DNA of 64,000 nt. It comes from Escherichia coli. GTDB lineage: Bacteria > Pseudomonadota > Gammaproteobacteria > Enterobacterales > Enterobacteriaceae. This document shows, in pieces, positions 1 to 41,153 of this stretch (its first letter is position 1; the number at the start of each line of letters is the position of its first letter). The notes beneath the pieces are model-generated. The model had not been told where the DNA came from. It was given only the letters and a program-made list of their open reading frames with translations, and did no database searches. The stretch lies in the NCBI RefSeq assembly GCF_003018235.1, contig NZ_CP027437.1. One strand, given 5' to 3'. A program made the translations under genes and the position numbers.

Positions 1-873
1 CCACCGGGTCATGTACATACGACTGCGTGTTCAGCCCGCCGCTCAGTTTCAGCGGATCCTGGCTTAAATACTGCCCCGTTCCGGCATCGTAGTAGCGGTG
101 TAAATTATACCACAGCCCGCTCTCCTCATCCTGCCACTGGCCCATGAAGCCCGCATCACAGCTTTCACGCTCACTGTCCGGCGAGTCGTTTGCTGCCAGC
201 CCCCACAGGCTGCGGTGTTTCGTCCACACCTTCCGCCCGTTTGCGCTGTACATCTCCTGCGGTACACCGTCCGGGCCGGTCACTATCGGGTAAAAATGGC
301 TCCGGTCATCATTCGCCGCCCGACGTTCCTTCGCCAGCAGTTCAAATCCGCCACGGTAGTGCCACTGCTCCCGCAGCGCCGGGCTGCCGTCTGCATACCG
401 CTTCTCGCTCGCCGACAGCGCCATGCCCTGCCACTGGTAGCGCACTTCACTGATGGCCTGTTGATGTCGTTTCCACGTCGCCCAGATAACGCAGCGTTTG
501 GCAGTTCTCCGGCCAAAGGCGTCGTAGCTGTACTGCCATACCTCACCGTCTGGTGTCTTTATCTCGCGCAGACGGTCAAAATCGTCCCAGCGGTAGCGCC
601 ACTCCTGTGGGCGAAAGCCGCGTTTTTGTTCTGTGCGCTTTGTCACCCTGCCGCAGGCGTCGTATTCGTAGCGGCTGTCGCCCGCCTGAGTCACACATTC
701 ACGGCTGTACTGGTGCTGCGACAGAATGCCGTTTATCCGGCTTTCCGCTATCTGCTCGTTTACCGTATAGCGATAGCGTTCTTCCTGCGCCGGGCCGTCG
801 GCGTCCAGCCGCAGTACACTGGTTATCTGGTCGCGGGCATCCTACTGGTAGCGCGTTTCCCGCTCCGTACGCG
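1..873 (-). pseudogene. Orphan rhs core fragment (3' part of Rhs YD-repeat core; no start codon; continues past window start toward its own C-terminal toxin domain)
   Basis: Nucleotides 1-873 are a near-identical direct repeat of 1703-2578 inside the main rhs gene; the reverse complement of the first bases encodes ...LSGGLNTQSYVHDPV, i.e. the start of the DPxG cleavage motif. Homology stops abruptly 38 bp downstream of the putative rhsI stop. Confidence 0.75.
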
Positions 874-910
874 TTTATTAGAAATCAAAAGATACCGATA
901 AAGATTCCCT

Positions 911-1267
911 TCATTTTTTTTCAAGCAACTCCTCATAAAGCCACATAACTAACCATTTACTATTTCTTGAATGTTCTAACATATAATGTCCAGACAAATA
1001 TTTAACAAATTCGCCATCATGAAGAGAAATATTTTTATTCATACTGTCAGAAATTATATTCAGAGTCCCTGACTGTACAAAAATATATCCCGTCATCATT
1101 GTTGTAGGTAAAGACAGCGCAGTTTTGTGAATTTTACTAACAATTCTTGAATTATTTACATTTAAACCAACTGTTAATCTAACATTATCTTCAGTGAGAG
1201 GGATGTCAAAATAATCTGACCACTTATAGATATGAAAGTCACTTAAATTTAGAAAAAACTCTCTCAT
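911..1267 (-). CDS. Putative Rhs immunity protein (RhsI-like), AT-rich
   Basis: Small AT-rich ORF immediately downstream of the rhs toxin C-terminus. Start taken at the internal ATG (MREFFLN...) 20 bp after the rhs stop; the longer ORF in the track (to 1384) overlaps rhs. Confidence 0.55.
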   Translation of the reverse strand: MREFFLNLSDFHIYKWSDYFDIPLTEDNVRLTVGLNVNNSRIVSKIHKTALSLPTTMMTGYIFVQSGTLNIISDSMNKNISLHDGEFVKYLSGHYMLEHSRNSKWLVMWLYEELLEKK

Positions 1268-1286
1268 ATTATTCTCATATAAAAGC

Positions 1287-4200
1287 TTAAGGAAAAATAA
1301 CCCCGTATTCTTCAAACGCAGCTCTAGCCGCTGCTTCAGATGCAGCGTTCTGAGTTCCAGTATTTCCGAAATGATAATGACCACTGTGAGGGGCTATATC
1401 AGTACCGAATCGTCCATTCACAACAGTAGCCTCTCCCGCCGCAAGAACTGGTTTTCCATTTGCAATTGCAGCATGAGAAATTTCTATCCCATCTTGCATT
1501 TTTGGTGCAGTTAATAGAGTGCCATCCTCAAGAAGGACATACTTTATATCGCCAGCTTCATCAGCCATATCTGCAAAACGTGGGTCTGATGGTTTCATCG
1601 GTTCAACACCGGCCTCTCTCATTGCAGCCAATTCCTCATCTAAATGTTCCGGTAATTGATTTTTAAACGGGCACCCAATAAAACCCCACGGATCACACCA
1701 GCCCACCGGGTCATGCACATACGACTGCGTGTTCATCCCGCCGCTCAGTTTCAGCGGGTCCTGGCTTAAATACTGCCCCGTTCCGGCATCGTAGTAGCGG
1801 TGTAAATTATACCACAGCCCGCTCTCCTCATCCCGCCACTGGCCCATGAAGCCCGCATCACAGCTTTCACGCTCACTGTCCGGCGAGTCGTTTGCTGCCG
1901 GAAGTCCCCACAGGCTGCGGTGTTTCGTCCACACCTTCTGGCCGTTCGCGCTGTACATCTCCTGTGGTGCGCCGTCCGGGCCGGTCACTATCGGGTAAAA
2001 ATGGCTCCGGTCATCATTCGCCGCCCGGCTTTCCTTTGCCAGCAGTTCAAACCCGTCACGGTAATGCCACTGTTCCCGTAGCGCCGGGCTGCCGTCTGCG
2101 TAGCACTTCTCACTGATGGAAAGCGCCATGCCCTGCCACTGGTAGCGCATTTCACTGATGGCGTGGCCTTGCTGCTTCCATGCAGCACGGATAACGCAGC
2201 GTTTTGCGGTTCTCCGGCCAAAGGCGTCGTAGCTGTACTGCCATACCTCACCGTCTGGTGTCTTTATCTCGCGCAGACGGTCAAAATCGTCCCAGCGGTA
2301 GCGCCACTCCTGTGGGCGAAAGCCGCGTTTTTGTTCTGTGCGCTTTGTCACCCTGCCGCAGGCGTCGTATTCGTAGCGGCTGTCGCCCGCCTGAGTCACA
2401 CATTCACGGCTGTACTGGTGCTGCGACAGAATGCCGTTTATCCGGCTTTCCGCTATCTGCTCGTTTACCGTATAGCGGTAGCGTTCTTCCTGCGCCGGGC
2501 CACCGGCGTCCAGCCGCAGTACGCTGGTTATCTGGTCGCGGGCATCGTACTGGTAGCGCGTTTCCCGCTCCGTGCGCGTTTTCGACCACACTTCATGCCC
2601 GGTCAGGCGGCCCGATTTATCCCACGCGTAGCGGTGTTCGCCCAGCGGTCGCCACGACGCCACGCTCTGGTGACCGCCAGCCAGCCGCTCTGCGCCCTGT
2701 TTTTGCCATGCCGTACGCCCGCAGGCGTCATATCCCTGCTCCTGCATATACACCGCATGGTTCAGCGGCGTCTGTGCCAGCCAGCTTTCCTCATTCTCCG
2801 GGCGGTAACGTCTGCTTTTTTCCAGCCCGGCGGGGGAATGACCGAAGTCCATCCGGTGGCCGTTGCTGCGGTAGCCCATGAGAATGCCCGAAGCATCGTA
2901 TTCTCTCTGTGTTTCCCCGTCCGGCGTTGTGGTGCCCGCCAGCCGTCCGGCTTCGTCGTAACGGTACTCCGTGCGCTGGCCATCCTGCTCTTCCGCCACC
3001 AGGCGATGACGTTCGTCCCACTCCAGTTTTACCTCGCTGGTCAGCGTGTAACCTGCTTCACTGGCATCACTGCGCTCATACACCTGCGCGCTCACCATCC
3101 GGTCATAATGGTCGTACTGATAACAGAGTTGCTGATGCTCGCCGCTGATGGTCGTCACCCGGCCATAGCCATCCCGCGCATAGCGCCATACGCTACCGTC
3201 CGGGCGGTGTTTTTCTGCCAGTCGGCCCTGTTCATCACGGATATAGACGGTTCTGCGTCCGGACCAGTCATCCTCCCCGGCCATCTGGCCCGCTGCATCA
3301 TAGTGCAGCCGCCACTGCTGGTTGCCGCTGCGCGTAAGCTGCGTCAGCCTTGCGGCACCGTCGTAGTTGCAGAGTATCCGCTGCCCGCCCGCGTCTTCCA
3401 CTTCCCGCAGCAGGTCAAATGCCCCGTGGCGGTAGCGCGTGGCCTGCCCCATGGCCCCGGTGTGGAGGGCGATTTTGCCTTCACCGTCATAGCGGAAGGT
3501 TTCCACGCCGCCATCGGCCCGGATAACCGCACTCAGTTTCTCATGCGGGTTATCAGCACCGGGGCGGTACTGCCAGTTCATGCTGCGCCCTTCCGCATCC
3601 ACCAGCCCCGTCAGCCGCAGCCAGCGGTCTTCCGTGTAATGGGTCGTGCGGCCTTCAGCATCCGTATGGGAAAGCAGGCCACCGTGGGCGCTGTAGCCCC
3701 ACTGTTCGTGGCTGCCGTCCGGGTATGTCACTTCCTTCAGCAGACCGTCTTCGGTATGACGGTACTGCCATTTTTGCCCGTTCACTTCCCGCCGGATAAG
3801 GTTCCCTTCGGCGTTATAGCTATAAGCTGCCGTGGTGTGATGGTCACGGTAGGCCGTTACCTGGCCGAACTCATCCCGCTGCCATTCACGCTTGCGCCCG
3901 TTCTCGTCCGTTTCGCTCAGGATACGCCCGGCGTAGTCGCGTTTTATCTGTGTGATACGCCCGCCCGGCTGGCGGATACACAGCGGCTGGTCGTATTCGT
4001 TACGCTCCCATTCAGTGATACGCCCCAGCGGGTCACGCTGTTTTTTCAGCAGCCAGGATTCATCGAACCACAGCGTGGTGGTGGCTCCGGTGGCGTCGGT
4101 ATAATCGGTTCTGCGCTCATCAGGGAAGTAGCGGAAGGTGTCGTTATACAGGCCTTCCTGTGTGCCTGTGGCAGTCACCCGGCCTTCATCGTCATAGCGC

Positions 4201-5813
4201 AGGTGGAAGTGCGTCGGGCCATTGTCGCGCCAGGAACTCAGCCAGCCCTGTTCGGTATAGGTATAGTGCAATGCACCATTAAAGCGGGTCTGTACATCAC
4301 GCAGCCGCTGCTCATCGCCGTGGCTGATATAGTCGTAACGCACCAGCTCGCTGCCGTCTGACTCGTCGGTCACACGGAATATCTGCCCCTGCGGGCCACA
4401 CCTCACCCGCAGACTCAGGCCGCTACTGTGGGTTACGTTTGTCAGGTGGCCGATGGCGTTATAGGTGAAGCGAATTTCGTTGCGGTTGCGGTCTTTTATT
4501 ACTGTTAGCCGCAGACGACGTGCGCCGGGGGAGATGGGCGTAAAGATATAACCCAGTTGTGAGTATTCGTCGAAAATAATAGCCCGCTCACGGTTTCCCA
4601 GGAGGCGATAGTGCGGGACAAGCAGGTTACGGCTACTGTATGGTGCCTGCTCCGTGGAGTAGGCCGGACATAGCCCCTCAGCATCAAAGTAGGTGACGTT
4701 TTTCCCGTTGCTATCGAACTCCAGAAACTGCGACCAGTTACACAACCAGCGACTGCCCAGCAAACCACTAACCGGATGTCGGCCTGTATAAGCACGTTTC
4801 AGCGTCAGCGGTAAAATATGCGAATAGTTGAAATCAGTTCGGTAATCCAGATATTCACCCGTTCCGGTATCCACCGGATCGCTGAACCCCTGACTGATAC
4901 GCTCATTGGCGGCTCTGTTTAACTGCTTTGCTCCCCATAGAGCTGTTAACACCTCCAGACTTGATACAACAGATTGTTCCAGTACCGTCATATCTGCATT
5001 AATCGGCCCATACTGTCCGGTTGTCTTATCAGCCGTGATGGTTTTACATCCTTCCTGAATAACTGCCGAGCAGGTAATTTTATGGCCCTTACGCGCCAGC
5101 GGCAGGCTGTTGACGGAAATAATTTTGCTCCCTTCCACTATCTGCGGAGGAGGACTGCCCGGATCCTTACTACATTCAACCGGATCAGTGACGCGAGCTA
5201 CCGCTTTTCCTTCAAAAAAAACATTAGGTGAGCCTTCTACAATCTGCCCGGTTTCAGATGCCCAGCGGGAACCAATTACCATCGCTGCACCACCGACAAA
5301 TCCACCAGCTAATCCCCCGGCCCCGGCAGCAACGGTGGCAGCAAGCACACCCAATGCGGCGCCCCCTGTAGCGACAACCAGAGCCCCCACTGCAATCCCT
5401 ACGATAAGTCCACCGATTAACCCACCAATAGCACCCAGAAAGGAATTGTTATGAACAATGTGATGACCCACACACGCCGGTATATCTGTTGGGCCGGAAA
5501 CAGCGTGATCTTTACCCCAGGTATCCATGAACCAGTCACCTGCTTTGGTGCCCAGCCATCCCCCCAGCATCCCGCCAGCCAGTCCGGCAATCAAAGGGCC
5601 TCCAAATCCTGCAACAGCTTTGGCTATTCCGGCTGCACAGGTATTTGCTGCGGCGGCTGCCAGTCCCACCTTTGCCGTTGCTCCCACCATGCTGACAGCC
5701 ATTATTCCAGTACTGGCAATATGTCCTGTGGTAGCAATACTCTCCACTGTTTCGGCATTACTGTCCCGTTGGTCCAGCTCCGCTAACTTCTCCTGCGCGC
5801 TTTTTTCCGTCAT
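1287..5813 (-). CDS. Rhs-family T6SS effector: N-terminal Gly/Ala-rich transmembrane region plus PAAR-like domain, YD-repeat shell, DPxG autoproteolysis motif (VHDPVGWCDPWGF), about 130-aa C-terminal toxin domain of unknown type
   Basis: 1508-aa ORF. Many YD repeats (YDxxGR-type), PAAR-like region (VTDPVECS...KGHKITCSA), C-terminal DPVGWCDPWGF followed by a divergent tail. Preceded by a DUF1795/EagR-like gene. Confidence 0.9.
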   Translation of the reverse strand: MTEKSAQEKLAELDQRDSNAETVESIATTGHIASTGIMAVSMVGATAKVGLAAAAANTCAAGIAKAVAGFGGPLIAGLAGGMLGGWLGTKAGDWFMDTWGKDHAVSGPTDIPACVGHHIVHNNSFLGAIGGLIGGLIVGIAVGALVVATGGAALGVLAATVAAGAGGLAGGFVGGAAMVIGSRWASETGQIVEGSPNVFFEGKAVARVTDPVECSKDPGSPPPQIVEGSKIISVNSLPLARKGHKITCSAVIQEGCKTITADKTTGQYGPINADMTVLEQSVVSSLEVLTALWGAKQLNRAANERISQGFSDPVDTGTGEYLDYRTDFNYSHILPLTLKRAYTGRHPVSGLLGSRWLCNWSQFLEFDSNGKNVTYFDAEGLCPAYSTEQAPYSSRNLLVPHYRLLGNRERAIIFDEYSQLGYIFTPISPGARRLRLTVIKDRNRNEIRFTYNAIGHLTNVTHSSGLSLRVRCGPQGQIFRVTDESDGSELVRYDYISHGDEQRLRDVQTRFNGALHYTYTEQGWLSSWRDNGPTHFHLRYDDEGRVTATGTQEGLYNDTFRYFPDERRTDYTDATGATTTLWFDESWLLKKQRDPLGRITEWERNEYDQPLCIRQPGGRITQIKRDYAGRILSETDENGRKREWQRDEFGQVTAYRDHHTTAAYSYNAEGNLIRREVNGQKWQYRHTEDGLLKEVTYPDGSHEQWGYSAHGGLLSHTDAEGRTTHYTEDRWLRLTGLVDAEGRSMNWQYRPGADNPHEKLSAVIRADGGVETFRYDGEGKIALHTGAMGQATRYRHGAFDLLREVEDAGGQRILCNYDGAARLTQLTRSGNQQWRLHYDAAGQMAGEDDWSGRRTVYIRDEQGRLAEKHRPDGSVWRYARDGYGRVTTISGEHQQLCYQYDHYDRMVSAQVYERSDASEAGYTLTSEVKLEWDERHRLVAEEQDGQRTEYRYDEAGRLAGTTTPDGETQREYDASGILMGYRSNGHRMDFGHSPAGLEKSRRYRPENEESWLAQTPLNHAVYMQEQGYDACGRTAWQKQGAERLAGGHQSVASWRPLGEHRYAWDKSGRLTGHEVWSKTRTERETRYQYDARDQITSVLRLDAGGPAQEERYRYTVNEQIAESRINGILSQHQYSRECVTQAGDSRYEYDACGRVTKRTEQKRGFRPQEWRYRWDDFDRLREIKTPDGEVWQYSYDAFGRRTAKRCVIRAAWKQQGHAISEMRYQWQGMALSISEKCYADGSPALREQWHYRDGFELLAKESRAANDDRSHFYPIVTGPDGAPQEMYSANGQKVWTKHRSLWGLPAANDSPDSERESCDAGFMGQWRDEESGLWYNLHRYYDAGTGQYLSQDPLKLSGGMNTQSYVHDPVGWCDPWGFIGCPFKNQLPEHLDEELAAMREAGVEPMKPSDPRFADMADEAGDIKYVLLEDGTLLTAPKMQDGIEISHAAIANGKPVLAAGEATVVNGRFGTDIAPHSGHYHFGNTGTQNAASEAAARAAFEEYGVIFP

Positions 5814-5843: not shown

Positions 5844-6275
5844 TTATTTATCCTGCGGCATTCCAAAACAAAAATTCAATAATGCTCCCCGCATCGCTTT
5901 ACGATCCTCCTCTGCCAGCGCCTGTGTTGAGGAATAGGTCAGCGTCAGTACTTGTCGCTCGTTCAGAATTACCAGCAGCAACTGCTGTATCATCACCCCC
6001 TTGTTATCCCAGCTAAATTCCCAGTATTCCGCCGGGCGCTCCTGTACATGACAGCGTTCTTCGACGGTGAACACCATTTTCGACAGTTCGGTACGGAATT
6101 TCTTTTTCTGCACCGCCAGATAGTCATCAAACTGCGCACCATCCGGCAATATTTCACGGGTAACAACAACATTAGCCCCGGCAATCGCACTTAATACCGG
6201 TGTCAGAATATTCATACTGCTGTCCTGCCAGTTTCCTGGCAGGGTGAAATGTCCTTCATTAATTAGATATTGCAT
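5844..6275 (-). CDS. EagR-like (DUF1795) effector-associated chaperone for the downstream PAAR-Rhs
   Basis: 143 aa; N-terminus MQYLINEGHFTLPGNWQDSSMNIL matches the typical DUF1795 start pattern (recalled). Sits directly upstream of an rhs with an N-terminal TM region. Confidence 0.7.
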   Translation of the reverse strand: MQYLINEGHFTLPGNWQDSSMNILTPVLSAIAGANVVVTREILPDGAQFDDYLAVQKKKFRTELSKMVFTVEERCHVQERPAEYWEFSWDNKGVMIQQLLLVILNERQVLTLTYSSTQALAEEDRKAMRGALLNFCFGMPQDK

Positions 6276-6480
6276 TCTCTTCCCCTGACATTAATTAAAA
6301 AAAATACCATTGATTTAATAATTGAATAACACCAAGATACTTGCATCATGAGTTTATATAGTTTTCCCGCCAACCTATATTTGTTTTTTCACACAAATAA
6401 GAATGTACTTACACACAAACCAATAAATCCACTGGTATCTAAAATAATTATTCTTTACATTATCTTAATCACAGATTTTA

Positions 6481-6930
6481 CTAATGGTTTCTCAAAAAAA
6501 TCTTTGCGTAATTAGGATTATTTAACTCTAAGTTCACCACATTAGATTTAAAATTATAAAAATCCGCATCTCTATCATCCTCTGTAACCTTTGAATCAAC
6601 CGTCGACCACACATTCGTATAAAAACTACACTCATGCTTTCCTGGCGTAATATGGTAATCTCTGGCAATTTGTACATAGTCCCCCACCTTCATTTCTCCG
6701 GGAGAGATTTTGTAATATTCCCCTTGTCCAAGGTTGTACATTACACCTGAATAACGAATCTTCTTGCCATCACATTCAACACTCAATTGATCGGAGCTCG
6801 GATATTTACCTTGAGATATGTACCTGACATCTATATATAATGGAATTTCACCATTATTTTTAACACGTACAGCAACATAAACGTCATCTTCTTTGGGTAT
6901 AACATCCACAATAACCATGTAACATGGCAT
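6481..6930 (-). CDS. Hypothetical protein downstream of vgrG; candidate immunity/partner for the VgrG C-terminal domain
   Basis: AT-rich ORF starting just after the vgrG stop; no obvious signal peptide; start codon uncertain (ATG at 6930 or 6918). Confidence 0.4.
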   Translation of the reverse strand: MPCYMVIVDVIPKEDDVYVAVRVKNNGEIPLYIDVRYISQGKYPSSDQLSVECDGKKIRYSGVMYNLGQGEYYKISPGEMKVGDYVQIARDYHITPGKHECSFYTNVWSTVDSKVTEDDRDADFYNFKSNVVNLELNNPNYAKIFLRNH

Positions 6931-6946
6931 CCATAAATTAAGCCTT

Positions 6947-9784
6947 TTATTCAAAATAACGTTCAAAGTTATAAGCACTTTGTAATGAGGCCCGCTTACC
7001 CTTTTTAGCTAGATCTATACCACCACTTCTTAAACCCTCATCAAAACTTCCGAGCACATCATAAAAATGTGACATTTCATGAATCAAAGTTATGACTTGT
7101 GAATCACGACCGTCCAGGGGATCGTCAATAAATTTATTTCCAAGATAAATGGTATGGGTATAATCTCCATCATTAACTCTTCCATGAACATTAACATCCA
7201 TAAATTCAAAATTTTGGTACTTAATCCCCTCATTAATTTCAATTTCTTTTTTTACAGCGTTTAAAATTTTATTCCTGGCTGCCTCATCATCAACACCGAA
7301 TATATTTCCAAAACGCTCTTTATCGTTATCATTCCAACGAATCAACTCATCTCTTGCTGATTTTAATTTTTTACGCTGCGCTTCAAGAACAAGTTTCATA
7401 TCATTTTCACTGATCCTTTTCTCCTCTATCATTTCATAAACAGGATTTCCATAATTATCTGTAAGAGGTTTTCCATTATATCCAATTATAGCTACTCCAT
7501 TACCCGGCCCTGATGTAGAAAAATCTCTAATTGTATTAATTTTATATTTACCATTTGCGTCACTACCGCCAGGATTCAGTGCCAAGTGAGTAGGTCCATC
7601 AAGGATGATAGTGCCGTCTGAATTCATCACGAGAGTGCTGCTTCCCACAGTCAACGTAATGTTCGTTGCCGCAGTCAAATGAATGGCACCAGATTTTGAT
7701 GTGATGGTAATATCCCCTTCGACAGTCTCCGTGCAGGTTCCCGTTTCTACCGTCACTTCGCGTTTACCCGTTTTCACCGTCAGAGACTGGTCACCTTCTG
7801 TCACAGTAATATCCCGGTTGCCTTTGATGGTTTCGGTGTGCTTACCCTCAACAAATTCTGTGCGATCGATTTTTACCGTAGATGTTTCGTTATGAATGAT
7901 GGTTTTCGTCCGATCTGCCTTTACCGTGTGTGTTTCGTTATTTTTCACGACGGTATTCAGATCTTTCTCCGCAAGAAACCTCACTTCTTCCGCACCTGTT
8001 TTATCGTCAAAGCGCAGCATGTTTCCGTTGGTCGGCCCGCCATACAGCGAGTGGCTGAATATCCCGCTCTGCGACGCCATGCCCGGCAATCCCCACGGCG
8101 GCATGGTGTCCTGGTTATAGGTGCGCCCTACAATGATCGGTAAATCCGGGTCGCCGTTTTTGAAATCCACCAGCACTTCCTGGCCGATGCGCGGGATCTG
8201 GATCATCCCGAATCCTTTCCCCGCCCACGGGTAGCTGACGCGGATCCAGCAGGAGCTGTTTTCGTCATTCTTTCCGTAACGGTCCCAGCCAAACTGGACC
8301 TTCACCCGGCCATATTTATCCGTCCAGATTTCCTGCCCCGCAGGGCCGGTGACGATGGCGCTCTGCGGGCCTTTGGTGTGGGGTTTGCTCAGGGTTCGCT
8401 GTGGGCGGTAAACTTCGCTGGTGGGATGCAGTTCAAACGTGGTGACATAGGTAAAATGCTGCTCCTGACCGCTGTGCTGCGCATTATCCCGTAAAAACAG
8501 CGTGGTCTGTACCAGTAGGTATTCCTGGTTGACCTCTGCCGTTGGATGATTCATCAGCGTAAAGGTGTAACCCGTCATGAGGGTGCGGATATGACCTGCC
8601 CCATGTGCCCGGCTGCCGGGGCTGCGCTGCGCTTCCATACGAATGCGCGTCAGCATCTCGCCTTCGCCCGTAGTGAAGTAATCACCAGGCCATTCATAAT
8701 GCTCGTATTCAGCATGACCGGTATCACGCGGACTAGCCACGGTACTTTTAAGCAGCGAACGAGGCTTCATAAAATCAAAATCGTCCATCACCCACTTTCC
8801 AGTACGTAGCCTCTCACTGGCCGTAATGGTGTGGATAAATTCCTTGTCCAGTTTCAGACCTTCCTGGTGCCACTCCACCAGTGGCGAGTCAGGGCACGCT
8901 TTATGACCATTGATGGCATCCGCCAGCACCAGCGTATGGCTGTTCTCGCTGTGCTCAAACCACCAGTAAATTCCCCACTCCTGCATCAGGCGCTGGATGA
9001 AATCAAAATCCGTTTCACCGTACTGTACCTGCCAGGCACGAGGTGGATAATTTTCCACCAGCCGTTTTTCCACCGGAAAGGAATATTCATCCAGTACTTC
9101 ATCGAGAATATCCACCACGGTTTTATTCTGGAACGCCTTGTAGTCGCTGGTATGGGTCAGCAGCTTCAGCCATGGCTCAATGCGTAATTCATACGTTACC
9201 GAACGGCCCTCATGGCCGACCACCCGCGCTGCCGTCACCAGCCCGCTGATATACCGTTTTTCGCCACCGTCCAGTTCAATACTGACGCACAGGTCTTTGC
9301 CCACCATGGGCTGAAGCGGCAGGTTGGCAGCGGGAGAAACGTAACCCAGGTTCAGGATGTCCGGCGTTTTAAGCTGTACTGTGTAGGAAAACAGATTCCC
9401 AAGTCCTTCCGAACCATTCATGCCTGCAAACAAAAGCAACTGCGGCGGCACCGCGCTACCACTTACTGTGACGTTATGCGCCCCCGGACCACCGGCTGCA
9501 AGCGACGACGCCGCATCCTGAACTGTACCAGCCATATCCGAGATCCCTACTGCAGCAGCGGCAGCCTGCGCAGCAGTTACTGCAGCTTTAACCAGACCTG
9601 ACGGTTCCGGCAACGCACCAAACAGGTCCGCCGCGGCCTGTTCTGCCATCTCCTCGGCGGCACCAGATACATCGGTTACGGCTGAACTGGCGCTTACAGC
9701 ACTACTTTCTCCGGCTATCGGTGGCGTGGAGATAGCTGGCCCACCGTTACTGCCAGATTTATTACTCGTAGATACAAAACTCAT
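6947..9784 (-). CDS. vgrG: VgrG (TssI) spike protein, 'evolved' type, with an AT-rich C-terminal extension containing an HExxH motif
   Basis: 945 aa. gp27-like region ([25 protein letters not shown]), gp5 OB-fold and beta-helix repeats (VKVQFGWD..., TVKxxR repeats). C-terminal about 180 aa is low GC and contains LIHEMSHF. Good SD (AAAGGA) upstream of the ATG at 9784. Confidence 0.9.
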
Positions 9785-28793: not shown

Positions 28794-30677
28794 ATGGATC
28801 CACGGCTACTGGAATACTACAACCGCGAACTGAGCTATCTGCGGGAAACGGGAGCCGAATTTGCCGCCCGTCATCCTAAAGTCGCCGCCCGACTGGGTAT
28901 GCAGGGAACGGATATTGCCGATCCGTATGTGGAGCGAATGGTCGAGGCCTTCAGCTTCCTGACCGCCCGCACGCAGCTAAAAATTGACGCTGAATTCCCC
29001 CGTTTCACCCAGCGTCTGCTGGAAGTGGTCAGCCCCAATTACGTCACACCCACGCCCTCAATGAGCGTGGCGCAGCTTCATCCCGATCCGGAAGAAGGCG
29101 ATCTGGCGAAGGGATTCACCGTCCCGCGCAACACGGCCTTTTTTTCCGCCATTCCGGAAGGCGAAAGTACCGCCTGCCAGTTTCGTAGCAGCCAGAATGT
29201 GACGCTGTGGCCACTTGCCATCGAAGAGGTGCGGCTGACCGCCGCGCCGCCGGATATGCCTGCCCTGCACCGCTACCTGCCAGCCAACATTCACGTCGCT
29301 GGTGCGCTGCGTATTACCCTGCGCACCTTTGGTGAACTGACGTTCAGTCAGCTTGCAGGGCTGAACAAGCTGCCATTTTATCTCTGCGGCGAGGAGCGCA
29401 CGGCCTCACACCTGTTCGAACTACTGCATACCAGCGCCATCGCGAGCCTGGCTGGCATTCCGGGGCATTTTGACGGCGCACTGGATGTGAATCTGAAACA
29501 GCCCGTTATGTACGAAGGCCTGGATCCGGATCAGGGACTGTTGCCGCTGGCGTGGAATGTGTTTCACGGCCATAACCTGCTACATGAATATTTTACCTGT
29601 CCGGAACGCTTCTTTTTTTTCACCCCGACAGGCCTGTCTGCCGGGTTACAGAAAATTAACGGCGGCGTGGCGGAGATTGTTATCCTGCTGAACCGCCTGC
29701 CGCCGGACTGGCTGATCCACCAGACAAACGCGGCACAGTTCAGCCTGTTCTGTACCCCAGTTATCAACCTGTTTCCCCGCGTCGCCGCCCGGATCGATGT
29801 CACGCACAGCACGACGGAACAGCATCTGGTGGTGGACAGAACCCATCCGCTGGATTATGAGGTGTTCTCGGTCCAGGAAGTGGAAGGGCTGGAAACTGAC
29901 ACCACACGGAAGATGGCCTTTCGCCCGCTCTACCACACCCGCAATAATGATGAAGGCAATCACGGACGTTATTTTTCCCTGCGCCGGGAGCCGCGCCGGT
30001 TGTCGGAAAATGCCCGCCGCTATGGCACCCGCACCTCCTATACAGGATCAGAAGTGTTCCTGTCGCTGGTTGACCAGTATGAAGCGCCGTACCCGGAAAA
30101 TCTGCGCCATATCACCATCACGGCTATGGTCACCAACCGCGATCTGCCCTGTCTTATTGCCCGCAATGGACGGGACGATCTGACCGTGGATGCGGCCATC
30201 CCGGTGGCGGGCGTGGGGCTTATCCGTCCGCCGCGTCCGCCGCAGCCTCCGCTGGCTGAACGTGAAATGGCCTGGCGGTTGATCCGCCAGTTATCCTTTA
30301 ACTATCTGCCGCTGGCCGATCTGGATCACCGTACCGGTGGTCAGGCGCTGCGCGATCTGCTTAACCTGTTTATTCCGGCGCATGACAGTCCGCAGTCGCG
30401 CCAGGTGCGCAGCCTGATTGGCTGCAACACCACCCCGGTCACCCGCCGTCTGCCCGGTTCCGGGCTGCTGGTCTATGGGCGCGGCGTCAGTTGTGAACTG
30501 ACCGTGGATGAGGAGGGGTTCTCCGGTATCAGTCCGTATCTGTTCGGTCTGGTGTTGGAGCACTATATCGCCCGTCATGTTTCCATTAATACCTTCTCGC
30601 AGATGACGCTGCACAGCATGCAGCGCGGCAAAATTATGACCTGGCCTGCCAGGGCGGGACAGCGGGGAAGCGTATGA
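28794..30677 (+). CDS. tssF: TssF baseplate protein
   Basis: 627 aa; MDPRLLEYYNRELSYLRETGAEFAARHPKVAARLG is a typical TssF N-terminus. Confidence 0.92.
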   Translation: MDPRLLEYYNRELSYLRETGAEFAARHPKVAARLGMQGTDIADPYVERMVEAFSFLTARTQLKIDAEFPRFTQRLLEVVSPNYVTPTPSMSVAQLHPDPEEGDLAKGFTVPRNTAFFSAIPEGESTACQFRSSQNVTLWPLAIEEVRLTAAPPDMPALHRYLPANIHVAGALRITLRTFGELTFSQLAGLNKLPFYLCGEERTASHLFELLHTSAIASLAGIPGHFDGALDVNLKQPVMYEGLDPDQGLLPLAWNVFHGHNLLHEYFTCPERFFFFTPTGLSAGLQKINGGVAEIVILLNRLPPDWLIHQTNAAQFSLFCTPVINLFPRVAARIDVTHSTTEQHLVVDRTHPLDYEVFSVQEVEGLETDTTRKMAFRPLYHTRNNDEGNHGRYFSLRREPRRLSENARRYGTRTSYTGSEVFLSLVDQYEAPYPENLRHITITAMVTNRDLPCLIARNGRDDLTVDAAIPVAGVGLIRPPRPPQPPLAEREMAWRLIRQLSFNYLPLADLDHRTGGQALRDLLNLFIPAHDSPQSRQVRSLIGCNTTPVTRRLPGSGLLVYGRGVSCELTVDEEGFSGISPYLFGLVLEHYIARHVSINTFSQMTLHSMQRGKIMTWPARAGQRGSV

Positions 30678-32857: not shown

Positions 32858-32934
32858 TGGCGGAACGGACGGGACTCGAACCCGCGACCCCCTGCGTGAC
32901 AGGCAGGTATTCTAACCGACTGAACTACCGCTCC
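32858..32934 (-). tRNA. aspV: tRNA-Asp (GUC)
   Basis: Reverse complement gives GGAGCGGTAGTTCAGTCGGTTAGAATACCTGCCTGTCACGCAGGGGGTCGCGGGTTCGAGTCCCGTCCGTTCCGCCA; lies next to dnaQ as in K-12. Downstream hairpin at 32821-32848. Confidence 0.97.
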
Positions 32935-41076: not shown

Positions 41077-41153
41077 TGGCGGAACGGACGGGACTCGAAC
41101 CCGCGACCCCCTGCGTGACAGGCAGGTATTCTAACCGACTGAACTACCGCTCC
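41077..41153 (-). tRNA. aspU: tRNA-Asp (GUC), distal gene of the rrnH operon
   Basis: Identical to the aspV tRNA sequence; follows the 5S rRNA; downstream hairpin (CCTCGAGCGTTAACTCGAGG) at about 41044-41063. Confidence 0.97.

Follow-up and report, generated by a model that had tools for sequence, protein, structure and literature searches.

A long direct repeat and a probable rhs main-plus-orphan array at the end of an Escherichia coli type VI secretion cluster

A long direct repeat at the left edge of the 64-kb stretch of Escherichia coli DNA analyzed here (the window) is best explained, with a probability of roughly 0.9, as an rhs main-plus-orphan array at the end of a type VI secretion system (T6SS) cluster. 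The array would run from vgrG through an eag chaperone gene to a gene for a PAAR-Rhs shell ending in PVGWCDPWG, followed by a toxin tip (CT1) and its immunity gene, and then by a displaced tip. The region had been read in the first-pass annotation as an orphan rhs module behind a main rhs gene, and this reading is supported: the arrangement is that of a textbook main/orphan array (Jackson 2009; Poole 2011; Koskiniemi 2014). The features on which the description relies are as follows.

6947..9784, minus strand: VgrG spike gene of the same type VI cluster (945 aa; TIGR03361, 552 bits)
5844..6275, minus strand: DcrB/DUF1795 (Eag-type) chaperone gene, annotated by PGAP as 'DcrB-related protein', with PF08786 on the identical-context gene
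5813..1287, minus strand: main rhs gene, an ORF for a predicted 1508-aa PAAR-Rhs type VI secretion effector
1703..2581, minus strand: main-gene copy of the repeat (3′ core, residues 1079–1370), reaching 1684 when compared with the orphan sequence of relatives
1290..1682, minus strand: main toxin tip CT1, which follows PVGWCDPWG and is a member of an uncharacterised family of polymorphic-toxin C-terminal domains
1267..911, minus strand: rhsI-main, presumed immunity gene (118 aa), from its position and the PGAP annotation in MEI003
877..910, minus strand: spacer from the rhsI-main stop to the core homology, 34 nt by sequence and alignment
876..1, minus strand: orphan fragment comprising the final ~292 codons of an Rhs core and aligning to main Rhs residues 1079–1370
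844–842, minus strand: in-frame TAG at codon 11 of the orphan, TAC in the main copy
504–772, identical to 2209–2477: longest perfect block between the copies, 269 bp
104..112, minus strand: TGGTATAAT in the orphan copy, resembling an extended −10 promoter element and located in the codons for LWYNL
1806..1814, minus strand: the same element, TGGTATAAT, in the main copy, from pattern search and alignment

Extent of the repeat and its setting in the type VI cluster

In a local alignment, positions 1–876 and 1703–2581 of the window are 94.3% identical over 876 aligned bases and differ by a single 3-nt indel. Two blocks are aligned, 1–197 with 1703–1899 (4 mismatches) and 198–876 with 1903–2581 (46 mismatches), and they are separated by three extra bases at 1900–1902 in the main copy. 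A repeat search and a blastn comparison of 1–876 with the whole window concur with this alignment, and neither detects a third copy in the 64 kb. A direct repeat of ~875 bp, described earlier as an orphan copy of the main rhs 3′ core, is confirmed by these results: the self-comparison named beforehand as its refuting test returned extended identity, and the boundaries first proposed (1–873 and 1703–2578, with an indel near 198–200 and 1900–1905) were right to within 3 nt. A 94% match over 876 bp cannot have arisen by chance. Identity along the repeat is a mosaic, in which the patch at 451–500 is only 72% identical and the perfect 269-bp block at 504–772 is the most likely crossover zone. In relatives, the repeat extends 19 nt beyond the window edge, up to the end of the PVGWCDPWG motif.

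Based on its domains, its demarcation motif and its linkage, the main gene is predicted to encode a T6SS PAAR-Rhs effector. The protein contains PAAR (PF05488, E = 3e-16), DUF6531, RHS_repeat and the TIGR03696 Rhs core (67 bits), and a motif of the PxxxxDPxGL type, PVGWCDPWGF, is encoded at 1709–1680. The DcrB/DUF1795 chaperone gene is located upstream of it, and this DcrB-related gene, VgrG, TagF, TssM and TssL are all nearby. Downstream, rhsI-main is AT-rich (~30% GC in a GC profile), has no Pfam or NCBIfam match and is presumed, from its position, to be the immunity gene of the main toxin.

The orphan fragment corresponds to the 3′ core of the main gene and is devoid of both PAAR and the N-terminal region. 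When extended with the sequence of relatives, it matches the YD_repeat and Rhs_assc_core models (TIGR03696 Rhs-associated core). The TGA stop of rhsI-main lies at 913–911 and the core homology starts at 876, or at 874 if judged against other strains; the fragment does begin shortly after the rhsI stop, as had been claimed, but the spacer measures 34–36 nt rather than 38. The sequence also bears out that the orphan has no start codon at the 5′ end of the fragment, and neither a start codon nor a ribosome-binding site for it was found in the spacer (877..910) from the sequence and the list of in-frame starts. An in-frame TAA TAA sits just 5′ of the fragment at 882–877. Beyond the TAG at codon 11, the core frame is open for 280 codons, and the first in-frame start is GTG 694, which has no obvious ribosome-binding site. 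All genes are on the minus strand, so the orphan leaves the window leftward in its 3′ direction, downstream. The fragment had been said to run off the window, which it does, but at the left edge and not 'upstream'. The edge cuts the orphan after YVHDPV and before GW, inside the PxxxxDPxGL motif.

Exchange between the copies and alternative origins

Between the main and orphan copies, dS is 0.17 and dN/dS is 0.17. Strains VCSW5 and S10 carry, in their main rhs, the variants that distinguish the orphan here, among them the 3-nt deletion. Because of this dN/dS value and the variants common to other strains, the divergence of the copies is read as allelic and not as the product of decay after a local duplication. 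In the main copy of metagenome scaffold L004, orphan alleles are present at eight consecutive diagnostic sites (1971..1834, including the indel) with main alleles on the flanks, a pattern by which this sister genome shows orphan-to-main gene conversion. The idea that the repeat is a substrate for recombination finds support in this natural exchange. The main copy of the window equals the orphan at 2334 and 2337, within the 269-bp block, where the MEI003 main copy differs from its orphan, and L006 and L009 carry a third allele at 1722–1860. Beyond carrying spare tips, orphan cores would also template diversification of the C-terminal segment of the shell.

Repeats of ~0.9 kb are a classic hazard of short-read assembly, and the window ends within this one, as might be expected had one rhs 3′ end been mis-assembled into two copies. 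The probability of such an artefact is nonetheless close to negligible: the same two copies, with the same ~50 copy-specific differences, occur in MEI003, in a metagenome scaffold and in five more NCBI assemblies (one a 4.98-Mb chromosome), and the unique sequence next to each copy differs, CT1 and rhsI-main for one and the EndoU tip for the other. Recent tandem duplication in place, with the copied rhs 3′ end now a neutrally decaying pseudogene without a role, would agree with the missing start codon and early TAG of the orphan, with the nonsense mutation of the orphan toxin in the closest relatives, and with a further core remnant truncated beside ISAs1. This origin is very unlikely, however, as the dS and dN/dS values indicate that most differences arose in functional genes under purifying selection, the orphan variants are common to main rhs alleles of other strains, and the unrelated tips and immunity genes on the two copies are not producible by duplication. 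The long open frame past the TAG, together with a 73-aa immunity ORF that is intact in 7 of 7 relatives, also argues against a decaying pseudogene.

By analogy with Salmonella, the orphan (and the main tip) could instead be chiefly an internally expressed toxin–antitoxin module under a P2-like promoter, and not primarily a recombination cassette. A perfect extended −10 is found at the P2 −10 position, ~8 nt upstream of a predicted start that is itself 89 nt before the PxxxxDPxGL codons (PMC7043789), an ATG directly follows the motif in relatives (GL-M-DCPL), and the toxin stop and immunity start overlap as ATGA. Such a primary function is considered unlikely, given that the −35 box is not conserved, that the TATAAT is partly forced by the conserved W-Y-N codons, and that the orphan toxin is stop-truncated in the closest relatives, so that no active toxin would be made. 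In the PGAP annotation, the orphan is an independent gene that begins at GTG 694 and encodes a 361-aa 'RHS repeat domain-containing protein', which would be a free short Rhs-toxin protein. Although a 361-codon frame is open from this GTG in MEI003 and scaffold L004, the codon is merely the first GTG past the TAG and has no Shine-Dalgarno-like sequence before it, and in L005–L009 the frame is broken into 278 + 78 aa. The product would also have neither PAAR nor the transmembrane/Eag-binding region and only a small part of the shell, and thus could not be loaded on VgrG; an independent gene is hardly credible. The main-plus-orphan array is the preferred reading.

The orphan module beyond the window edge and the main toxin tip

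The left flank was read from L005, L007 and L008, which have 1 mismatch with the window in 6845 bp. The complete chromosome of E. coli MEI003 is 100% identical to window 1–2333; as the best left-flank proxy it was dropped, with 28 differences in 7 kb versus 1 in 6.8 kb for those three loci. In the relatives, the orphan core is followed by an EndoU-type tip, a 73-aa MafI-like immunity gene, a second core remnant, ISAs1 and yafV, and the core fragments of the array measure ~895 bp and then about 270–290 bp for the remnant, which is truncated beside ISAs1. The window itself contains only ...HDPV of the orphan motif, and the rest of the motif, the toxin and the immunity gene are taken from relatives. 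There the motif reads PVGWCDPWGL (L001, L004 and L005–L009, with 99.7% identity or more where they overlap the window), and homology to the main gene ends right after it. A different toxin/immunity pair had been expected past the edge, to be sought by extending the sequence, and the near-identical genomes supply it in the form of an EndoU_bacteria tip and a 73-aa MafI-like protein. The same-strand array and start-less 3′ core fragment of the window, combined with the motif, tip and immunity ORF of the relatives, are what would be predicted for an orphan module as previously defined (PMC3150448).

The orphan tip (CT2) matches EndoU_bacteria (PF14436) with an E value of 3.3e-10, over model positions 64–126 of 129 only, which is the C-terminal half. 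Its homologues carry PF14436, and an H-x-L-x-G-D...G-H motif is visible in the tip by eye only. The 73-aa ORF, whose start overlaps the toxin stop, aligns with the full MafI model NF033691 (positions 1–67 of 67, E = 2.8e-7) at 30.3 bits, under the NCBI curated cutoff of 31 bits, and its putative product is best treated as MafI-like and not called a MafI family member. No significant PDB sequence match was obtained for CT2 or for the orphan immunity protein. In a protein search, no EndoU tip fused to a full-length Rhs was found, and all homologues are at most 215 aa. Among 5426 complete E. coli genomes, the DNA of the orphan tip is found in one (MEI003), and not in another position.

At 141 nt past the window edge, a nonsense change converts FPDTW to FPDT-stop in all five of the L005–L009 loci, and the resulting 78-aa fragment is present on ~68 contigs. 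Judging from these relatives, the orphan toxin of this lineage is very probably nonsense-mutated with its immunity gene intact. For the nonsense allele of the nearest relatives, no toxicity is predicted. Swapping toxins in this lineage would probably yield a dead tip, with the immunity gene as the preserved part, and the orphan module today most likely functions as a template for recombination and as an immunity gene that has been kept, not as usable spare ammunition.

Searches with the CT1 sequence and with a CT1 profile gave no Pfam, NCBIfam or PDB sequence match. The family is large and widespread, with 402 representative homologues (cluster representatives), in which the domain is nearly always at the extreme C-terminus, and its carriers are Rhs, CdiA/HecA-like, Hint-domain, DUF4157 and lipoprotein fusions. 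Residues N, E, H and S-G-H are invariant. The AlphaFold2 model of CT1 has a pLDDT of 96.7 and no fold match in the PDB. Across the compared genomes, CT1 follows three different 3′ core alleles without itself changing; among complete E. coli genomes it was found only in MEI003, with no instance in another position. These observations are consistent with a tentative joint proposal, to which somewhat less than even odds are given, that CT1 could be a toxin of new fold and new activity with an equally unclassified immunity protein, and that orphan-to-main conversion diversifies the C-terminal segment of the shell. The CT1 family is a reasonable biochemical target.

An internal promoter-like element, a proposed mechanism and related systems

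In a pattern search of the 64 kb, TGGTATAAT was found only at 104–112 and 1806–1814. In alignment, this element coincides with TACAAT, the −10 of P2, an internal rhs promoter of Salmonella (sequence from PMC7043789) that was verified by 5′RACE and initiates transcription 89 nt before the PxxxxDPxGL codons (PMC7043789). The P2-like geometry fits here, with a predicted start near 96 and the P codon at 7–5. Internal promoters had been suggested as something to look for, and the outcome is divided: a consensus extended −10 is present at the P2 position in both copies, but the P2 −35 (TTGACG) is not conserved at the aligned position. A sigma-70 consensus scan of window 1–2700 and of L001 10900–13400 gave nothing convincing on the gene strand, and it misses the extended −10 because it demands a −35 box.

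Following the displacement model of rhs tips (Jackson 2009; PMC2935791), a tip with a piece of core, probably in the form of a circle, would have entered by homologous recombination with the resident core. Its entry would have duplicated the core segment and pushed the older tip downstream. The 876 (+19) bp at 94% identity, with the 269-bp perfect block, would then serve as a RecA substrate. A crossover between the copies is predicted to delete ~1.7 kb (CT1 and rhsI-main), so that the shell would continue into the orphan tip in a 1499-aa product; as an alternative outcome, the 1.7-kb cassette may be released as a circle. The main–EndoU fusion was not observed among the genomes searched. Non-reciprocal conversion transfers polymorphisms between the copies, and this is the step seen by comparing sister genomes. 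The orphan tip and immunity gene may be transcribed from the P2-like internal core promoter, as suggested by homology to Salmonella.

The array resembles rhs-main (STM0291) and rhs-CT-orphan (STM0292) in SPI-6 of Salmonella Typhimurium LT2, where a T6SS-linked rhs and its rhsI are followed by a same-strand, start-less core with a different tip and immunity gene (PMC3967940, PMC7043789). The LT2 main and orphan sequences are 95% identical over 522 bp, and recombination between them brings the orphan toxin into use (PMC3967940); the repeat here, at 94.3% over 876 bp, is longer. An internal −10 lies at the same core codons in both, here as the consensus extended −10 with the P2 −35 not conserved. 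In contrast to LT2, the orphan tip here is EndoU-like and nonsense-mutated in the closest relatives. As in the dissociated tips of Jackson 2009 (PMC2935791), core-fragment-plus-tip units with same-clade cores of variable length lie downstream of an intact rhs, and tips and cores are evolutionarily decoupled, as exemplified by CT1 on three core alleles. Unlike those arrays, the present one is short, with one complete unit and one remnant, and the circular intermediate is only proposed. Orphan cdiA-CT/cdiI modules (Poole 2011, PMC3150448), thought to be a reserve of diversity in toxin and immunity, are likewise start-less tip fragments with a conserved stretch, a demarcation motif and an intact immunity gene, but they belong to CdiA two-partner secretion rather than to a T6SS Rhs shell and carry VENN in place of PxxxxDPxGL. 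A likeness to EndoU polymorphic toxins with MafI-type immunity is also seen, in that the orphan tip matches PF14436 and the downstream ORF spans the full NF033691 model. Such toxin–immunity pairs are linked to Neisseria MafB/MafI. The present locus differs in matching half of the Pfam model, in a MafI score of 30.3 bits (cutoff 31), in Rhs/T6SS rather than Maf delivery, and in the truncated toxin of the nearest relatives.

For the genome, the repeat is a ~1.7 kb deletion and assembly hazard. The locus offers a clean natural E. coli example in which a long, high-identity repeat, population evidence of exchange between main and orphan, one tip on three cores, and a probably dead toxin with a surviving immunity gene occur together. 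Orphan modules account for the way in which Rhs and CDI weapons exchange toxins while keeping the delivery machine, and in which strains gather immunity genes.

The main effector gene and its tip

The left end of the window carries, on the minus strand, a type VI secretion PAAR-Rhs effector gene followed by an orphan rhs core fragment:

9784..6947, minus strand: VgrG gene (945 aa), before main rhs
6275..5844, minus strand: DcrB/DUF1795 (Eag-type) gene, upstream of main rhs
5813..1287, minus strand: main rhs, ORF of 1508 aa
1709-1680, minus strand: shell-end motif PVGWCDPWGF, then the ~130-aa tip, CT1
1267..911, minus strand: presumed immunity gene rhsI-main, an AT-rich 118-aa ORF starting 20 nt past the main rhs stop
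876..1, minus strand: orphan rhs core fragment; core sequence restarts after a 34-nt spacer behind rhsI-main

The effector assignment follows from the domains of the main Rhs protein (PAAR motif, E 3e-16; DUF6531; RHS repeats; Rhs-associated core) and from its neighbors, the Eag-type and VgrG genes and, beyond VgrG, TagF, TssM and TssL. The 3' part of the VgrG gene is AT-rich (30-35% GC), and an AT-rich ORF (150-165 aa) lies downstream of it (region 6150-7500). An identical protein from the metagenome scaffold L004 has a weak Aspzincin_M35 match, and vgrG is annotated as a truncated pseudogene in E. coli strains MEI003 and VCSW5. Elsewhere in the window, the T6SS cluster includes a 627-aa ORF (28794-30677) in which ARAGORN calls a tRNA-His (94 nt, 30460-30553, plus strand), probably falsely. 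The tRNA genes are:

32858-32934 and 41077-41153: genuine tRNA-Asp genes
44.5-44.7 kb: tRNA-Ala/Ile of an rRNA operon

CT1 matched nothing in Pfam, NCBIfam or the PDB sequences, and no solved relative was found for its confidently predicted fold. An exhaustive HMMER search recovered 402 representative homologues, 120-3,800 aa long, and in nearly all of them the domain reaches to within 13 residues of the C-terminus; by these homologues, CT1 is assigned to a widespread polymorphic-toxin C-terminal family, with invariant N, E, H and S-G-H residues. The rhsI-main protein (911-1267, minus strand) is, like CT1, unclassified. In an unusual arrangement for a toxin tip, two database entries, P0015 (779 aa) and P0017 (434 aa), have three to four tandem CT1-like domains of an AHTVL type that lacks S-G-H, with low-complexity linkers rich in D, G and R between them.

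The repeat and the orphan module

Local alignment pairs window positions 1-197 with 1703-1899 and 198-876 with 1903-2581, giving 50 mismatches over 876 aligned bases (94.3% identity) and one 3-nt indel, in which the main copy has the additional bases (1900-1902). A repeat search is concordant, and blastn against the whole 64 kb returns these two copies only. The ~875-bp direct repeat described in the first-pass annotation is thus real, with its coordinates off by at most 3 nt; the core does restart just behind rhsI-main, but across 34 nt rather than the 38 bp proposed. The copies share seven perfect blocks of 25 bp or longer, the longest being 269 bp (504-772 = 2209-2477), and identity falls to 72% around 451-500.

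Translated in the main-gene frame, the orphan corresponds to main residues 1079-1370. TAA TAA lies immediately upstream, and the frame has a TAG at 844-842 (TAC in the main gene); it is then open for 280 codons to ...YVHDPV at the window edge. Long antisense ORFs opposite the GC-rich rhs core (215-901, plus strand, 228 aa; 2163-4361, plus strand, 732 aa) are probably spurious, as is a "hypothetical protein" of 62 aa that PGAP places opposite the MEI003 orphan (window 713-901).

The window is E. coli chromosomal DNA, its housekeeping genes matching all 5,424 genomes hit at 95-99%. The sequence beyond the edge was read in relatives. MEI003 is 100% identical to the window over 1-2333 (99.67% over 14.6 kb), and the same array occurs in five NCBI assemblies (L005-L009) and in L004. 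The best proxies for the window are L005, L007 and L008, each a single base away from it in 6,845 bp. All of these relatives, MEI003 and L004-L009, extend the repeat by 19 nt past the edge, as far as the last residue of PVGWCDPWG, where similarity stops abruptly. The orphan tip that follows matches the C-terminal half of EndoU_bacteria (PF14436, E 3.3e-10), a domain also carried by its homologues. Overlapping the toxin stop as ATGA is a 73-aa ORF that aligns to the MafI immunity model over its full length (30.3 bits, below the cutoff of 31). Next in all of them come a second core remnant (~290 bp; 87% identity with core positions 315-587), an ISAs1 element and yafV, with these coordinates in the MEI003 locus (L001):

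L001 11042-11335: second core remnant, a 97-aa ORF, shorter than the first, adjoining ISAs1
L001 9797-10934: ISAs1 element, beyond the second remnant, beside yafV

ISAs1 is frameshifted in MEI003 and VCSW5, and the L006 and L009 calls give an intact ORF of 378 aa; VCSW5 has the element at the same site and has no orphan.

In all five of L005-L009, a G-to-A change 141 nt past the window edge (L005 ~6986) converts TGG to a stop (FPDTW to FPDT*), removing the 78 residues in which the Pfam-matched portion of the EndoU domain lies. The 73-aa ORF is intact. The 78-aa toxin fragment is recorded on ~68 contigs; MEI003 and L004 have the intact (TGG) allele. Since the window is 1 base from L005, its orphan very probably carries the nonsense allele.

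A generic promoter scan gave no hit. TGGTATAAT, a consensus extended -10, occurs at exactly two sites in the 64 kb, both on the gene strand (104-112 and 1806-1814). When the 108-bp Salmonella P2 promoter (PMC7043789) is aligned, its -10, TACAAT, falls exactly on the window TATAAT. The predicted transcription start (~96) precedes the PxxxxDPxGL codons by ~89 nt, the spacing reported for P2 (PMC7043789). The P2 -35 box is not conserved. The aligned -10 and the start spacing make it plausible that transcription starts inside the core and runs into the tip and immunity gene.

Origin of the orphan copy

An assembly artefact is excluded, as at least seven independent assemblies have the same copy-specific differences. 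PGAP calls the fragment as a stand-alone 361-aa gene, against which stand the lack of a ribosome-binding site and of any delivery domain. The orphan may additionally act as an internal TA-like module (compare PMC7043789), with the nonsense allele speaking against an active toxin here. In-place duplication followed by neutral decay is contradicted by the unrelated tips of the two copies and by their divergence (Nei-Gojobori dS = 0.17, dN = 0.030, dN/dS = 0.17; 22 synonymous versus 17 non-synonymous codon changes), a pattern indicating that the differences arose in translated, selected genes and not in a silent duplicate. Orphan alleles are, moreover, common to other strains' main rhs: the 3-nt deletion and the run at alignment 487-508 recur in E. 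coli S10 and VCSW5, which have other tips at this locus and no orphan.

The shared alleles and divergence pattern fit C-terminal displacement (PMC2935791), in which an incoming tip carrying a core piece would recombine with the resident core through a circular intermediate, shunting the older tip downstream of the new one; the displacement step is inferred. The array is an ordinary case of an already well-described arrangement, and the CT1 family is a better lead than the repeat.

Exchange between copies

In L004, the main copy is orphan-type at eight diagnostic sites in a row (1971, 1969, 1965, 1947, 1941, 1939, 1905 and the indel, through 1834) and main-type on either side, at 2028 and 1758, marking an orphan-derived gene conversion tract of 138-270 bp. 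This L004 gene (segment 8379-8904, equivalent to window 1703-2231) also has a 128-nt deletion (window-equivalent 2232-2359) between two TACGACGCCT repeats (YD-repeat codons), splitting it into 1016 + 439 aa. At 2334 and 2337 the window main copy, unlike those of MEI003 and VCSW5, has the orphan bases, consistent with a short conversion tract that made the 269-bp perfect block. L006 and L009 have the same CT1 behind a third, S10-like allele spanning 1722-1860, with 11 substitutions, of which one changes an amino acid (M to L); the L006 main rhs is additionally split (204 + 1234 aa). From these three cases, the 3' core is demonstrably exchanged in natural populations. This exchange, together with the different tip and immunity ORF beyond the edge in relatives, bears out the first-pass reading of an orphan rhs core.

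If the copies crossed over reciprocally downstream of the TAG, ~1.7 kb would be lost and a 1499-aa Rhs-EndoU fusion would result; no such product was found in the databases searched. The precedent from Salmonella LT2 is experimental: its two copies share 95% identity across 522 bp, and the orphan toxin is put to use by recombinants (PMC3967940). If the window has the nonsense allele, a tip swap would install a dead tip, and the immunity gene would be what selection retains; the nearest parallel in the literature is the proposal that strains keep orphan cdiI genes as an immunity repertoire (PMC3150448).
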